Positions 48,016 to 60,309 of a DNA stretch of 64,000 nt are shown in pieces. The translations under genes and the position numbers were made by a program. This DNA is from an uncultured delta proteobacterium. GTDB taxonomy: Bacteria > Desulfobacterota > Desulfuromonadia > Desulfuromonadales > BM103. Numbering within the stretch: position 1 is the stretch's first letter; the number at the start of each line of letters is the position of its first letter. The DNA lies in contig CAVQRZ010000001.1 of assembly GCA_963715335.1 (NCBI GenBank), forward strand, positions 128,001-192,000. The letters run 5' to 3'. The notes under the pieces are model-generated. The model ran no database searches. It saw only the letters and a list, made by a program, of their open reading frames with translations, and was not told the DNA's origin.

Positions 48016-51000
48016 ATGAAGTTCACCGATCTTTTTATCCGTCGGCCGGTACTCGCGCTGGTGATCAGCCTGCTGATCATCATCTCCGGCCTGCAGGCCA
48101 TCCGCTCCCTGAATGTCCGCCAGTACCCACGCAGTGACAATGCCGTGGTTACAATCACCACGGTCTATGTCGGCGCGAACGCCGAACTGGTGCGCGGGTT
48201 CATCACCACACCACTGGAACGGGCCGTCGCCGCAGCCGACGGCATCGACTACATCGAGTCGCAAAGCGCCCAGGGATTGTCCACCATCAGCGCCCGGCTT
48301 AAACTCAACTACGACCCGATCAAGGCCCTCTCCGAAATCAGCTCAAAAGTTGATCAGGTGCGCGGCGACCTGCCACCGGAAGCCGAAGTCCCGGTCATCA
48401 ACGTCGAGTCAGCCGACAGCCAGTTTGCCTCCGCCTATCTGAGTTTTACCTCGGATACGCTCAAGCAGAACCAGATTACCGATTACCTGGTGCGCGTCGT
48501 CCAGCCCCGGCTGTCAGCCCTGGAGGGCGTCCAGCGTGCCGACATCCTCGGCGCCCGCACCTTCGCCATGCGCATCTGGCTCAAGCCCGACCGCATGGCG
48601 GCCTTCAATGTCAGCCCGGCACAGGTGGCCCAGGCGCTGACGGCGAATAATTTCCTGGCAGCCGTCGGCAGCACCAAGGGCTCTATGATTCAGGTCAATC
48701 TGACCGCCGACACCAATCTGCAGTCGGTGGAGGAGTTCAAACGCCTGGTGGTGCGTGCCGGAGATGGCGGCATCGTGCGCCTGGAGGATATTGGTGACGT
48801 CGTGCTGGGTGCCGAAAATTATGACACAGAAGTGCGCTTTTCCGGACAGACTGCTGTCTTCATGGGGATCTGGCCATTACCCAACGCCAACTCCCTGGAT
48901 GTGATCAAACGCGCCCGGGTGGAAATGGAAGGGATCGCCGCTCAGCTACCCCAGCGGGCTCGAGGGACGCATAGCCTACGACGGTACCGCCTATATCGAC
49001 AACGCCATTCAAGAGGTCATCAAGACCCTGAGCGAAACCCTGCTGATCGTGGTCGTGATCATCTTCCTGTTTCTGGGGTCGCTGCGCTCGGCCATCATTC
49101 CCGTGGTGGCGATTCCACTGTCGCTGATCGGTGCTGTCTTTCTCATGCAGGTCTTCGGCTTCACAGTCAACCTGTTGACCCTGTTGGCCATCGTGCTCTC
49201 TGTCGGACTGGTGGTGGATGATGCCATCGTGGTGGTGGAAAACGTCGAACGCCACATGAGCAACGGAGAATCCCCCATGCAAGCGGCTATCCTGGGGGCG
49301 CGCGAGCTGGTGAGTCCACTGATCTCCATGACGATCACCCTGGCTGCGGTCTACGCACCGATCGGCTTGCAGGGAGGACTGACTGGCGCATTGTTTCGCG
49401 AATTTGCCTTTACCCTGGCCGGTGCCGTGACCATTTCCGGCATCGTCGCTGTGACCCTGTCGCCGATGATGTCTTCGCAATTGCTCAAGGCCGGCATGAA
49501 CGAACGCGGCTTCGCCGGGAAAGTCGGACGTGATTTCAACCGGCTGCGCAATTTCTATGGCAGGTTGCTGAACAGCAGCCTGAATGCCAGGCCGGCCGTC
49601 TACCTGGCATGGCTGGTGGTCAGCCTGCTGACTATCCCCATGTTCAGCATGTCAGCCAAGGAGTTGGCGCCTGTCGAGGATCAGGGTGTCATCTTCGGCA
49701 TCCTGGACGCGGCCGCCAACTCCACCATCGACCAGACCAGTCACTATGCGGCAGCGGTCAACGAAGCGTTTTTAAGCGTCCCGGAGACCCAGTTTGTCTT
49801 CCAGATCAGTACGCCCTCTTCCGGGTTTGGCGGGATGGTGGTCAAACCCTGGCAGGAGCGTGAACGCAACATTTTCCAGATTATGCCCGAAGTCAGTCAG
49901 AAGTTGCACAATATCCCCGGCATCAGGATGTTCCCGGTCACACCGCCGGCGCTGCCAGGTGGCGGCCAGTTCCCCGTTGAATTCATCCTCGCCTCCACCG
50001 CCGAACCGGAACAGATTCTGGATTTTGCCAGCAAAATCCAGTTCGCCGCCATGAAGAGCGGCATGTTTGCCTTTCCTCCCTATCATCGACGTAAAGATCG
50101 ATCAGCCCCAGTCCGAGCTGATCATCGATCGGGACAAGGTGGCGGACCTGGGCCTAAACCTCAAGCAGGTGGGGGCCGACATGGCGACGATGATCGGCGG
50201 CAACTTTGTCAACCGCTTCAACATCGCTGGCCGCAGCTACAAGGTGATCCCCCAGGTTCAACGCAGCGACCGGCTGAACCCGGAGCAGCTGCGCAACATC
50301 TACGTCACCGGACCCAAGGGTAAGCTGATCCCGCTGAGCACCATCGCCACCATCAGGGACAGCACCGTACCACGCTCGCTAAACCGTTTTCAGCAACTCA
50401 ACGCGGTCAAGATCAGCGGTGTGGCGGTACGCCCACTGGACGAGGCGCTGCGTTTTCTGGAAGGGGAAGCCGCCAAGGTCCTGCCACAGGGGTACGTGCT
50501 CGACTACACCGGTGAGTCCCGCCAGCTGCGTAGCGAAGGCAACAAGTTTATTCAGGCGTTCGCCCTGGCCGTCATCCTGATTTTCCTGGTGCTGGCGGCC
50601 CAATTCAACAGCTTCCGCGATCCCTTCGTCATCCTGGCCGGTTCGGTCCCCCTGGCCATGTTCGGAGCGATGATTTTCACCTTCCTCAAAATGCCCGACC
50701 CCAGCGTCCCCTTCTGGACCCACGGCTGGACCACCACCATGAACATCTACTCCCAGGTGGGGCTCGTCACCCTCGTCGGACTGGTTTCGAAAAACGGGAT
50801 TCTAATTGTCGAATTCGCCAACAAGCTGCAGGAGAAGGGCCGCAGCAAGCGAGAAGCCGTGTATGAAGCGGCGCTGACCCGCTTGCGCCCCATCCTGATG
50901 ACCACCGGGGCCACCATTGCCGGCCACTTCCCGCTGATCCTGGTCACCGGGGCCGGAGCAGCGGCCCGGAATTCGATCGGCCTGGTGCTGGTTGGCGGCA

Positions 51001-51122
51001 TGGCGGTCGGGACGTTGTTTACTCTGTTCATTATTCCGTCTATCTACATGCTGGTGGCCAAGGATCACAGCAAGGACCAGATACAGGCGGACGAGGAGAC
51101 CAAAGCTCTGATCGGGCTGTGA
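48016..51122 (+). CDS. HAE1 RND permease (MexI/MexW-like), with two +1 frameshifts as sequenced
   Basis: FIRRPVLA, GLVVDDAIVVVEN, KNGILIVEFA and RLRPILMT; frames join if one C is removed at 48949-48952 and one base at 50078-50081. Confidence 0.9.
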
Positions 51123-53939: not shown

Positions 53940-56147
<2,208 letters not shown>

Positions 56148-56246
56148 TTACAGACATTTACAGTTACTAGCGACGTTTGGATGTTTGGGGGTTGACAGGT
56201 TAAAGTCTTTCCACTTTTATCACAACTTATAGGCTTGTCAATATTA

Positions 56247-56265
56247 ATGGATAATTATTATCCAT
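56247..56265. promoter_or_regulatory. Per/Fur-box-like operator upstream of katG
   Basis: Perfect 9-1-9 palindrome ATGGATAAT-T-ATTATCCAT next to a minus-strand TTGACA at 56241-56236. Confidence 0.7.
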
Positions 56266-56292
56266 AAGTTCTCAAAAAAAATAACGCTGCTT

Positions 56293-56751
56293 TCAGTTCT
56301 TCTGGCAGGTCGGGCAAACGCCGAAAAACTCGACTTGATGTGAGACGATTTTATAGCCGGTGGTTTTCGCCACTTCAGAGGTCAAGCGCTCAAGTTGATT
56401 CACTTCGGGATCGATGATGCTTTGACATTGCGTGCAGATCAGGTGAGGGTGCGGATACGGCTTGTTGCCATCGTAGCGGTTGCAACCATCGGCAAAACTG
56501 ATCTCGAGAATTTCACCGATCTCTTTCAACAGGTTTACGGTCTTGTAGACCGTCGCCAGACTGGTGGTCGGGAAGTTGATCCTGACCTGCCCATAAACCC
56601 GTTCGACGCTCGGATGTTCATTACTGAAAAGAAATGCCTTGAGGATGGCGATCCGCTGCGGCGTGATACGAAACTCACTTTGACGGAGTTTGTCGAGGAT
56701 TTCATCCAGTCTTTCTTGTGGATTCTTCACGTTGTCACCATGTGCAATCAC
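56293..56751 (-). CDS. perR: Fur-family peroxide-sensing repressor PerR
   Basis: TPQR, HPS, SLATVY, RYD, HPHLICTQC, IID and CPTC motifs; adjacent to katG. Confidence 0.85.
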   Translation of the reverse strand: MIAHGDNVKNPQERLDEILDKLRQSEFRITPQRIAILKAFLFSNEHPSVERVYGQVRINFPTTSLATVYKTVNLLKEIGEILEISFADGCNRYDGNKPYPHPHLICTQCQSIIDPEVNQLERLTSEVAKTTGYKIVSHQVEFFGVCPTCQKN

Positions 56752-56949: not shown

Positions 56950-58170
56950 CTAAGCACTTGATGACGCCCCCACGGACGCGGGCGCACTCGCAACGGCCAA
57001 CTTAAGTTCGGCAATGAATCTGTCGATCTCCTGCAGGCTATTATAATAGTGCAGCGAGGCCCGCAGCAGTGCCGGCAGATCACGGTTTTTCGCGCTGACC
57101 GGATTGGCAGAGAACGGCACCAGCGAGGTGTTGATGCCGCGTGACAGCAGCTGTTGCTGCAGCTTCTCGGCAGGAACCTGCCCGGCAAACATCGTGACGA
57201 TACCGGATTGTTCGAGTCCCTGGTCGGCAACGGTAACACCATCGACATCGGTCAACCTGCGGCGCAGTTCCGCGGCGAGCAAGCCGATGCGCTGATTGAT
57301 GGCTTCGAGCCCCCAATCGAGGGCATAATCTATCGCCACGCCCAGGGCGACCTGGCCGGCACAGCTACGCTCCCAGCATTCAAAGCGCTTCGCATCTGCA
57401 CGCAACCGGTATGCGTCGATACTTATCAATTCTGCAGCATGGTGATTAAGCTGACTCGGTTCAAGTTGCTCGAGCAACGACCTGCGTACATAGAGCAGCC
57501 CCGTTCCGCGCGGACCACGCAGAAATTTGCGCCCGGTGCCACAAAGCATATCGCAACCGATTTGTTCAACATCAATGGGCATCTGACCGAGTGACTGGCA
57601 GGCATCGAGCAGGTAGGGGACCTCCGCAGCGTTCGCTACCTGACCGACCGCGGCGGCCGGATTGACCAGACCGTCCCCGGAAGGGATGTGGGTCAGACAA
57701 ATCAGGCGTACCCGGGAATCGATCAGCTGTTCCAAAGTCGCGACATCGATCTGTCCATGCTCGTCATCCGGCACCCAGGTAATCTCAACGCCTCGCTGAT
57801 GGGCCAGATGCAGGAAGGCGACCAGGTTACTGCCGTACTCGCTGCAGCCGGCGAGGATGCGGTCTCCAGGTTGCAGGTCCAGCGCATAAAAGGCAGCGCT
57901 CCAGGCCCGGGTGGCGCTGTCGCTGAATGCGATTTCAGAAGAGGCGCAATTGAGCAGCCTGGCCGCGGCAGAATAGAAGTTCGCCAATTCGTCAGCACGC
58001 CTTGCCATGGTCTCGTAGCCACCGTTCAGTTCCTCTTCATGCAGGTAGCCGTAGAGAGCATCGGCGACCGGGATCGGCGGCAGGGAGGCTCCGGCATTAT
58101 TGAAATGGATCACCGTTTCACAGCCCCGCGTGTCGCGGCGGGCCTTATCGGCATCAAAAGCCGGTGGCAT
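56950..58170 (-). CDS. Class V PLP-dependent enzyme, EgtE-like C-S (sulfoxide) lyase
   Basis: HFNNAGAS, GGYE, DACQSLGQ and GTGRKFLRGPRG; no desulfurase catalytic-Cys loop is evident; TGATG overlap with ovoA. Confidence 0.75.
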   Translation of the reverse strand: MPPAFDADKARRDTRGCETVIHFNNAGASLPPIPVADALYGYLHEEELNGGYETMARRADELANFYSAAARLLNCASSEIAFSDSATRAWSAAFYALDLQPGDRILAGCSEYGSNLVAFLHLAHQRGVEITWVPDDEHGQIDVATLEQLIDSRVRLICLTHIPSGDGLVNPAAAVGQVANAAEVPYLLDACQSLGQMPIDVEQIGCDMLCGTGRKFLRGPRGTGLLYVRRSLLEQLEPSQLNHHAAELISIDAYRLRADAKRFECWERSCAGQVALGVAIDYALDWGLEAINQRIGLLAAELRRRLTDVDGVTVADQGLEQSGIVTMFAGQVPAEKLQQQLLSRGINTSLVPFSANPVSAKNRDLPALLRASLHYYNSLQEIDRFIAELKLAVASAPASVGASSSA

Positions 58171-60278
58171 CAGGAGAGCTTCTCCCAGACCGTCAGTTGC
58201 GAGAGGGTATGCTGGAACTTGCGCGCCGTTTCACGCAGCACGAAAGGCACATCGCGCGGCTCGCCGAGCCTTCTGAAATGTCCGCCAAGCTGCTCCTCGA
58301 GGCCCTCGAGCGTCGTCAAAGGTTCCCCGGCGCGACGGACTCCGCCGACCCAGTTCTGTATGTCCGTATACTCCTCCAACCAGGTGTAAGGTGAGGCAAT
58401 CACCAGCAGGCCACAGGGATTGATGCGCTCGTGGATACCGCAGAGAAACCGTTTCGGATCGTAGAGTCGGTCGAGCAGGTTTGCCGCCAGGACCAGGTCA
58501 TAACCAGTGAACTGAGGCTTGAGGTTGTGCGCATCCCCCTGGACGAACTCAATTTTTTTAGCCAGCCCGTCGAGCCCGAATTCACTCAGCCGCTTTTCGT
58601 GGAAGGAGACGATTTCACCCTCCTCGGTGAGCTGGTAGTGAATCAGGCCCTTCTCCTGCAGTTGGTGCGCGATCCGGATAAAGCGGGCAGAAAAATCAAT
58701 CCCTGTGACAAAGTGGAAAGATCTTGACAGCTCGAAACTGCTGCGACCAACAGCACAACCAATATCCAGGGCCCGATTCATCGGTCGTTTACCCATTTCC
58801 GCCACACAGATTTCAGCGAGCTGCCTGGGGAAATTGGCTATGTCGAATTTGTCTGGCCCGAAATGAGCATCACAGTACTGGGCAACCGCGTCGTCGGTTT
58901 CGTACATCGCTTTCGGTTCCACGACAGCCTGTTCTGCAGAAACGTAGCGGAACCCGGCGTGCTGAAAGAAATGCCTGCGGAATGCATAACGTGAATCACG
59001 CGTAGCCTCGTTGCCGGTCGAGATCCATGATCCGCCCTTGATCAGGTTGTGCTGGGTGTCGAAAGTCGGGGTAGAAAAATCATCGTAGTAAGGATGCACT
59101 TCAAAGCCGTCGAAGCCGGTAATCGGGGTTTCGGTCCACTGCCAGACATTGCCGATCAGGTCGTAAAAGTCACCGAAAGCAAAGCGGTTGACCGGGCATG
59201 AAGAGGCCCAATGTTCAAGATTGATGTTGCCAGGAGCCCTGGCCCAGTAGGGCTGGTCGGGGATCTCGTGGCGATCGCGCAGCAGGTACCATTCATCCTC
59301 TGTGGGCAGGCGAATCGGCAGGCCGGTCCTTGTTGCCTGCCAATTACAATAAGCTTTGGCTTCCAGATAATTGACCTCGACCGGCCAGTCCCACGGCATG
59401 ACAATTTCCCGGGCCATGGTGCGAAAACGATAGCCGGCATTGTCCTTGATCCAGAAAAGCGGCTGGCTGGCTTTGCTGAATTGCAGCCAATGCCGGCCCT
59501 CTTCCGTCCAGCATGTTTCATCCTGGTAACCGCCAGCCTCGACAAACTCCAGATATTCACGATTCGAAACCAGGTATTTACTGGCAGAGAAGTCTTCAAC
59601 CGTGAACCTGTGCTGGCCAAATTCATTATCCCAACCGTAAAGCGGATGATCTTTGTTTTTGCCAATCCGGACTTCACCGCCAGGGACACCCAGAAGCTGA
59701 TTTTGCGGCGCGTCACCCGTATCAGTGCAGATCTCCCAGAGGGGTAATTGTCGGACCTTCTCGATCGGCAGCCGGCGAATAATTACGGAAGAGGTTTCCA
59801 GGTGAATGCGCTGATGCTCGATCCCCATCATGATCACCCAGAACGGGTTACTCCAGTCGATCGGCAAGGTCAGCGGCAGCGTTTCAATGACGTCGTTGAC
59901 CCGCTGCCGGACCTGGTCGCGATAGGCTTTGACTTCAGCGACGGTCGGCCAGTCGTAATTCTCGGCGTTGAGGTCATCCCAGGACATCTCGTCGACACCG
60001 ATAGCGAACATCGACTCAAAGTGCGGATTGATCCGATCCTCGATAAGCTTGGCGACGATCAGCTTGTTGATATAGAAAACTGCCGTATGGCCAAGGTAAA
60101 AGATCAGCGGATGACGCAACGGTTCTGCGCGCTGGCAAAATGCGGCATCATCGGCAAGCGTCTCGTAGAGCTGCTCATCGATACTGTAGGTCTTGTGAAA
60201 GTAATCGAGGATTTCGGCGCGCTTTTCGTCCGGCGTGCCGAGGTTCAGGATGGTTGTACGGGTATTGCGAAGCACCAC
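58170..60278 (-). CDS. ovoA: 5-histidylcysteine sulfoxide synthase with C-terminal methyltransferase (ovothiol synthase)
   Basis: RHPLIFYLGH, GVDEMSWDD, Fe motif HQRIHLE, FGE-sulfatase domain (GWDNE, GNVWQW, HPYYDDFS, FRRHFFQHAGFR) and MTase (ALDIGCAVGR). GTG start at 60278/60275 after GGAG; the ORF track start of 60311 is less likely. Confidence 0.93.
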   Translation of the reverse strand: MVLRNTRTTILNLGTPDEKRAEILDYFHKTYSIDEQLYETLADDAAFCQRAEPLRHPLIFYLGHTAVFYINKLIVAKLIEDRINPHFESMFAIGVDEMSWDDLNAENYDWPTVAEVKAYRDQVRQRVNDVIETLPLTLPIDWSNPFWVIMMGIEHQRIHLETSSVIIRRLPIEKVRQLPLWEICTDTGDAPQNQLLGVPGGEVRIGKNKDHPLYGWDNEFGQHRFTVEDFSASKYLVSNREYLEFVEAGGYQDETCWTEEGRHWLQFSKASQPLFWIKDNAGYRFRTMAREIVMPWDWPVEVNYLEAKAYCNWQATRTGLPIRLPTEDEWYLLRDRHEIPDQPYWARAPGNINLEHWASSCPVNRFAFGDFYDLIGNVWQWTETPITGFDGFEVHPYYDDFSTPTFDTQHNLIKGGSWISTGNEATRDSRYAFRRHFFQHAGFRYVSAEQAVVEPKAMYETDDAVAQYCDAHFGPDKFDIANFPRQLAEICVAEMGKRPMNRALDIGCAVGRSSFELSRSFHFVTGIDFSARFIRIAHQLQEKGLIHYQLTEEGEIVSFHEKRLSEFGLDGLAKKIEFVQGDAHNLKPQFTGYDLVLAANLLDRLYDPKRFLCGIHERINPCGLLVIASPYTWLEEYTDIQNWVGGVRRAGEPLTTLEGLEEQLGGHFRRLGEPRDVPFVLRETARKFQHTLSQLTVWEKLS

Positions 60279-60309
60279 AGAATCTCCATTGATTAGCAGT
60301 TGATTGATC

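Follow-up and report, generated by a model that had tools for sequence, protein, structure and literature searches.

An operon of ovoA and a class V, EgtE-related pyridoxal phosphate enzyme in Desulfuromonadales as a candidate two-gene ovothiol pathway

The described system closest to the locus analysed here is the OvoA-OvoB pathway of Erwinia tasmaniensis, in which the sulfoxide synthase OvoA (known in structure from OvoA-Th2, 8KHQ) is partnered by the pyridoxal phosphate (PLP) enzyme OvoB (5Z0Q; PMC8433421), a C-S lyase of the PatB/MalY type (class I/II) whose biochemistry we take from the available text of a review (PMC9103826); another ovoA-ovoB pair is reported in the accessible part of PMC8943887. 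The corresponding step of ergothioneine synthesis is carried out by the class V hercynylcysteine sulfoxide lyase EgtE (Mycolicibacterium smegmatis, 8IRK/8IRY). In a 2021 survey, as far as its available text and table go, no OvoB was recognised in 43 of 230 ovoA genomes, clustering with ovoA was reported only for class I/II lyases, and OvoB was marked 'Absent' in Geopsychrobacter electrodiphilus and Pelobacter seleniigenes (PMC8433421). Here we describe an operon in a 64,000-nucleotide stretch (the window) of contig CAVQRZ010000001.1 from an uncultured delta proteobacterium, in which ovoA is directly followed by a gene for a class V PLP enzyme. This enzyme is likely a non-orthologous replacement of OvoB and the ovothiol C-S lyase of its lineage of sediment bacteria, which would give a two-gene pathway to ovothiol A. 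The original prediction, made from the letters of the window, had proposed the same, and the proposal now gains support from the placement of the enzyme on the EgtE side of the class V tree and from its conserved adjacency to ovoA. The elements of the locus are as follows.

58170..60278, minus strand: ovoA, encoding a 5-histidylcysteine sulfoxide synthase (DinB and FGE domains) fused to an N-pi methyltransferase; 702 aa, GTG start
56950..58170, minus strand: gene for a class V PLP enzyme of 406 aa, related to EgtE and belonging to an uncurated family without catalytic Cys; proposed sulfoxide C-S lyase replacing OvoB
58168..58172, minus strand: TGATG, stop/start overlap of ovoA and the lyase gene
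60284..60287, minus strand: GGAG, resembling a ribosome-binding site and separated by 5 nt from the GTG of ovoA

The first gene encodes a three-domain OvoA like that of the Erwinia pathway, with all listed active-site residues. The protein exceeds both NCBIfam cut-offs (TIGR04344, 700.6 bits, cut-off 400; TIGR04345, 341.1 bits, cut-off 170), contains the Pfam domains DinB_2, FGE-sulfatase and methyltransferase, and finds the OvoA structure 8KHQ as its top PDB match (E 2e-275), as expected from the full three-domain OvoA called originally; its start position and length are matched by OvoA of relatives. The tyrosine that had been read as retained in HPYYDDF is Y398, which aligns with the catalytic Y406 of OvoA-Th2. 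The iron site consists of the His triad H64/H155/H159, aligned to H71/H162/H166 of 8KHQ; the HxxxHxE motif previously named for it covers two of these ligands, but its Glu is not a listed ligand and the third His is H64. Residues R55, Y61, V95, the His triad, Y398, F401 and T405 match those named for 8KHQ in the accessible text of PMC10696552, and R55, Y61, H64, D96, H155, H159, Y398, F401 and Y431-A432-F433 together form the composite motif of OvoA and not that of EgtB-IV, following the definitions in the available part of a preprint (bioRxiv 10.1101/2024.04.10.588772).

These residues bear on the question of whether the product might be a different one, namely a 2-thiohistidine of the ergothioneine type or a selenium analogue, hence the EgtE-like partner. 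Relatives of OvoA with C2 chemistry exist (EgtB-IV, AshA), and OvoA-Th2 yields a C2 product with hercynine (PMC10696552), as far as the accessible texts report. Nevertheless, all 25 aligned OvoAs coupled to the class V lyase carry the motif RYHDHHYFYAF, identical in OvoAs coupled to PatB and assigned to the OvoA type by the preprint's available definitions, and no senB/senC-like gene recurs among the clustered neighbours, for which no family-level search was made. Neither EgtD nor an over-cut-off EgtB was found in any of five operon genomes tested, i.e. the source genome (3.3 Mb, completeness 100%, contamination 6.9%) and four relatives, and OvoA is therefore the only sulfoxide source found in them. 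We thus consider a different product very unlikely.

The stop codon of ovoA and the start codon of the lyase gene share a single base (TGATG, 58172-58168), exactly where the overlap had been noted before. A one-base overlap of the form TGATG or TAATG is present in 18 of 23 related ovoA-lyase loci examined and is thus not due to chance; the other five loci comprise one with ATGA, one with TGATGATG, one without ATG and two that are not scorable. The stop/start overlap is still kept in related loci at 67% identity, and from this arrangement we infer translational coupling of the two genes via TGATG. A scan for promoters and terminators gave 2 and 4 sites compared to shuffle means of 2.6 and 5.8, none of them above chance, and in one metatranscriptome run short contigs of relatives cover both genes, with none of those listed spanning the junction (share 0.06), which provides no evidence of transcription.

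The second gene product belongs to PF00266 (209.7 bits) and carries GTGRKFLRGPRG at residues 211-222, consistent with the class V assignment made earlier from GTGRK..GPRG. It thus occupies the same place directly after ovoA as the PLP enzymes of PatB-type clusters in sister lineages, but belongs to class V and not to the PatB/MalY class I/II enzymes. It scores below every NCBIfam cut-off listed, including those for SufS (187.7 bits, cut-off 475) and EgtE (TIGR04343; 156.8 bits, cut-off 400), and its listed NCBIfam hits lack the PatB model TIGR04350, so that no membership in OvoB (PatB/MalY) was found. Several of these comparisons weigh against our proposal. SufS scores higher than EgtE not only in the hidden Markov model (HMM) searches but also with phmmer (E 2e-39 versus 4e-28) and with a profile built from 49 sequences, and two fold comparisons using a predicted model (pLDDT 93.8) list only cysteine desulfurases, with SufS/CsdA superimposing at Z ~49 and a root mean square deviation of 1.9 Å over 387 residues (24% identity). 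The Foldseek and VIA matches listed do not include EgtE, which we do not count as excluding it; desulfurases have the same fold and prevail in the PDB.

SufS and CsdA being its top HMM and fold matches, the enzyme could be a desulfurase or a cysteine-sulfinate desulfinase that clears a side product of OvoA or supplies sulfur or selenium. OvoA-Th2 yields about 10% cysteine sulfinate according to the available text of PMC10696552, and C17, C75, C158, C191, C206 and C210 are invariant in the ovoA-coupled clade. However, unlike SufS and CsdA, the enzyme has neither a catalytic Cys loop nor the stacking His: the Cys loop of SufS (GHHC) is replaced by VPFSANP, which contains no Cys and bears out the original reading that an obvious desulfurase loop is missing, Y112 takes the place of the stacking His, and Arg-Lys that of His-Lys. 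In addition, the source genome already encodes two further class V enzymes, both with a Cys loop, and a grouping with SufS is rejected by the tree test described below. A role as desulfurase or desulfinase is thus hardly credible.

The residues point to EgtE instead. We compared 24 sequences of the ovoA clade, 72 other family members, 13 sequences of the EgtE clade (5 of them over the TIGR04343 cut-off) and 5 over-cut-off SufS sequences in a multiple alignment, in which Y52, Y112, D189, Q192, R214, K215, E267 and R370 of the lyase correspond to Y48, Y106, D180, Q183, R202, K203, E247 and R348 of M. smegmatis EgtE (MsEgtE) as named in the accessible part of PMC10805701, the MsEgtE numbering being mapped through genome-derived TIGR04343 members and not by direct alignment to 8IRK. 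The catalytic residues of EgtE (Y52, Y112, D189, Q192, R214, K215 and R370 in the lyase) are kept in 24/24 ovoA-coupled lyases. R214 and E267 are common to 13/13 EgtE-clade sequences and occur in none of the SufS sequences, which show His at positions 112 and 214 in all five cases. The lyase thus shares with EgtE the class V fold, eight residue equivalents and one tree clade, but differs in its score, in its linkage to ovoA without egtABCD and, as a further point against our proposal, in having Ala355 where EgtE has R337; its identity to the five over-cut-off EgtE members is 24-31%. At thirty positions the coupled clade is invariant for residues that are rare in the other sequences; these include N242-H243 and 351-359, which by alignment lie in loops lining the substrate pocket of EgtE/Egt2 in the published accounts available. 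Drift within one clade would likewise produce a list of this kind.

In a tree of 27 sequences (LG+C20), the lyase family and EgtE were grouped with support of 100/100, apart from SufS, from two further enzymes with a Cys loop and from three of NifS/IscS type (the names of the latter two sets being taken from motifs), and an approximately unbiased (AU) test, made after two earlier class V trees had been inspected, rejected a grouping of the family with SufS (p=0.0006). The preceding class V tree, which gave 84/72 for the key split and contained one wrongly extracted row, is superseded; two of its divergent rows were removed for the 27-row tree and others thinned. The lyase therefore does not cluster with SufS, IscS or OvoB, the outcome that would have spoken against the original prediction, and curated EgtE forms a long branch beside or within the lyase family. 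Because active-site residues and tree favour EgtE while the scores stay below the TIGR04343 cut-off, the earlier term EgtE-type lyase holds in the sense of kinship, but the enzyme stands outside the curated EgtE family and cannot be called an EgtE. In a quick tree the ovoA-coupled lyases fall into a single branch (100) surrounded by sequences from Gammaproteobacteria and Chloroflexota, a placement that points to horizontal gain without proving it.

Conservation of the pair was followed in 201 genomes of the order (a set overlapping with 80 lyase loci from our genome collection), with a threshold of E<=1e-60 for the lyase. ovoA was found in 50 of these genomes, with some copies partial or frameshifted, and 17 further matches were methyltransferase-only or weak. 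The lyase occurs in 31 genomes, all of which also have ovoA, and the two genes are adjacent on one contig in 30 of them and split over contig ends in the remaining one, so that the proposed conservation next to ovoA is clearly seen; 29 of the 30 adjacent pairs have hit ends within 21 bp, and one frameshifted copy lies at 432 bp. In one further genome (locus L109) the beginning of the lyase gene is visible where a contig ends. Among the 80 lyase loci, 24 are at 63-91% identity, and ovoA lies directly upstream in 22 of these, the other two beginning at a contig edge. The closest named loci come from Desulfuromonadales, Geobacteraceae, Geopsychrobacteraceae and unclassified deltaproteobacterial metagenome-assembled genomes (MAGs). 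In three relatives (L137:4831-8107, L006:2898-4998, L136) ovoA or the lyase gene is frameshifted or shortened, either by assembly error or by decay.

A tree of 50 OvoA sequences, prepared without L129 (partial) and L251 (a long branch), places all 25 lyase-coupled sequences in one clade (99/98, 35 rows) where they are intermixed with eight lyase-less ones, while seven PatB-coupled sequences fall outside. This fits one recruitment of the lyase and several losses: the coupling would have arisen once, in one Desulfuromonadales OvoA clade, with a lyase probably acquired horizontally and lost several times. The sequence left out, L251:5147-7558, is a divergent OvoA (40% identity, 804 aa open reading frame) whose His-binding motif is FHF instead of YAF, recalling AshA-type C2 enzymes; its genome has a member of the lyase family elsewhere.

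The same survey also yields arguments against a dedicated lyase. Eleven genomes of the order have ovoA and sequenced downstream DNA but no adjacent lyase of either type, ten of them without PatB at E<=1e-60, and a dedicated lyase is therefore dispensable; in two more, the sequence stops at a contig edge. Moreover, since the coupling is probably one event, the 31 related genomes are not independent. The enzyme might thus accompany ovoA as a general lyase for cysteine S-conjugates or cystine, with a housekeeping lyase doing the required step. Such an explanation is also favoured by the absence of OvoA from most genomes of the wider lyase family and by the literature, which in the parts accessible describes thiohistidine pathways, ash and tgi, as borrowing lyases (PMC13674229) and OvoB as an enzyme of broad specificity (PMC12631010). 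It is opposed by the absence of the lyase from all 151 order genomes without ovoA, by the stop/start overlap kept down to 67% identity, and by the alternation of the lyase with OvoB in the same slot. We regard a general lyase as improbable, and prefer to see in the enzyme the replacement of OvoB.

This alternation is evident from the distribution of PatB (E<=1e-60), which occurs in 29 of the 201 genomes of the order but in only two of the 31 lyase-bearing ones, in both away from ovoA. In the source genome no PatB over the TIGR04350 cut-off was found (8 matches, best 134.7 of 340 bits). In five genomes of family f23 the gene after ovoA encodes a PatB over the cut-off (469-527 bits), and one such PatB that was searched finds 5Z0Q as its best structure (E 4e-120), in agreement with the earlier statement that the OvoB of Erwinia belongs to a different PLP subfamily. 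Among 301 genomes of the phylum, ovoA is present in nine besides the source genome, none of which has the class V lyase; PatB lies directly after ovoA in three of them and 2.4 kb upstream in one, and none is found within ~11 kb in five. True OvoB thus occupies the slot after ovoA in eight other Desulfobacterota genomes (five of f23 and three from the phylum set).

In the proposed pathway the Fe/O2 domain of OvoA, an activity deduced from its demonstrated family membership, would join C5 of His to Cys and form 5-histidylcysteine sulfoxide. The PLP enzyme would then bind the Cys moiety, with K215 forming the Schiff base and R370 contacting the carboxylate, and beta-elimination would release pyruvate, ammonia and a sulfenic acid, the latter being reduced to 5-thiohistidine by a cellular thiol, by analogy with the action of EgtE on ergothioneine sulfoxide (PMC4493562, available text). 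The C-terminal domain of OvoA would finally methylate N-pi with S-adenosylmethionine. A switch in His regiochemistry relative to EgtE is plausible because MsEgtE grips the Cys part of its substrate tightly and the His part loosely, according to the accessible part of PMC10805701. Heme-copper oxidase-family genes are present in all five operon genomes and cytochrome bd in three, which suggests that the hosts are exposed to O2. With the operon, nominally anaerobic metal and sulfur reducers would keep an O2-dependent antioxidant route.

The wider lyase family is less clearly connected to ovothiol. Among 56 more distant loci, an EgtB-like gene lies within 5 kb in four (three of these neighbours were scored, and all three pass TIGR03440), OvoA in one, and neither in 51. 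OvoA is present in only two of 46 distant lyase-family genomes (any match at E<=1e-20 in 24/46), two genomes of the phylum have the lyase family without ovoA, and many of the actinobacterial proteins carry a sarcosine-oxidase-like domain as a fusion; these observations count against our proposal, since a family found mostly without ovoA and with oxidase fusions will have other substrates and is not specific for ovothiol. The fusions (P0127-P0184), to a domain resembling monomeric sarcosine oxidase or N-methyltryptophan oxidase in many Actinomycetota, suggest that an N-methylated S-conjugate is catabolised by a route not yet described, and single members are fused to methyltransferase, beta-lactamase-like and ornithine transaminase domains. 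No OvoA-lyase fusion was found among 65 longer homologues, which is weak evidence as only 8000 candidates were scored.

In Couchioplanes, a lyase-family gene is divergent from egtA-B-C-D (EgtA 397/371, EgtD 376/291 and EgtB over the cut-off; EgtC read by eye). A family member is the best match to the EgtE model in five of five genomes tested, and EgtE over the cut-off was found in none of the five; the members adjoining egt genes in Couchioplanes/Actinoplanes (L042:610-6158, L058, L060) are probably their unannotated EgtE. In a Sphingomonadales MAG (L029:4340-9111), a lyase-family gene and a full-length ovoA, the only ovoA in 201 genomes of that order, converge with a gene for a major facilitator superfamily (MFS) transporter between them, a single case of possible independent recruitment. 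Tentatively, and with some doubt, we suggest that the lyase of the window would be the first class V ovothiol lyase, specialised for the C5-sulfoxide, and that it derives from a widespread Cys-less family ancestral to mycobacterial EgtE which was separately recruited to Micromonosporaceae ergothioneine clusters, Desulfuromonadales ovoA and one Sphingomonadales ovoA, with N242-H243 (for D-L), the loop 351-359 VPFSANPxS, C158 and C210, all fixed exclusively in the coupled clade, as the residues that switch the enzyme from hercynine-type substrates to 5-histidyl ones. If true, the pair of ovothiol and ergothioneine lyases would provide a natural experiment on C2 against C5 specificity in such enzymes.

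We found no description of a class V or EgtE-type lyase paired with ovoA in a literature search that most subscription papers lay outside of, which leaves absence from print not established; the operon is real and conserved, and apparently undescribed. The nearest published candidate is NBV57240.1 ('BacOvoB_5', Bacteroidetes; PMC8433421), likewise a PLP enzyme annotated as class V and proposed in silico as OvoB-like. Unlike the lyase described here, it was found via similarity to a fused domain of Hydra, accompanies a two-domain OvoA and has no reported clustering in the available text, and it is by this description only that we set the two apart. The accessible dataset of that study contains the OvoA TNF49314.1, whose next accession, TNF49315.1 (P0101), is the lyase of our locus L021, and it lists MRR53461.1 as OvoB for 'Deltaproteobacteria bacterium'. 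In PMC13674229, the available Table 1 gives 'EgtE' neighbours at 6.2%, pooled over all sulfoxide synthases with OvoA not separated, and because of this pooling ovoA-lyase operons may sit unremarked in those data. As the chemistry itself is already known, what the locus contributes is a new enzyme for an established step: a concrete second ovothiol-lyase candidate for one lineage without recognised OvoB, a hypothesis on the function of a large family that currently carries the name 'cysteine desulfurase/selenocysteine lyase', and a two-gene ovothiol cassette that could be offered for production.

Stand-alone genes similar to the C-terminal methyltransferase of OvoA (49-59% identity) were observed in 14 genomes of the order that lack a complete ovoA; two genomes with ovoA have them as additional copies. 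At five loci inspected (L252:5377-6129, L253:1060-1794, L254:5291-6049, L255:5117-5878, L256:4948-5697) no sulfoxide synthase was found nearby; these methyltransferases could act on imported 5-thiohistidine or on another substrate. Within the window, genes for a PerR/Fur-type regulator and the catalase-peroxidase katG (53940-56751, minus strand) come after the ovoA-lyase operon on the same strand. We considered them as part of the operon and rejected this, because the adjacency is seen in only one of 22 related ovoA-lyase loci. Further away (48016-51122, plus strand), a gene resembling an RND permease and flanked by those for a membrane-fusion protein and an outer-membrane factor, all identified by eye, shows up as three overlapping open reading frames, and a split oxidase subunit on contig C14 hints at assembly indels.

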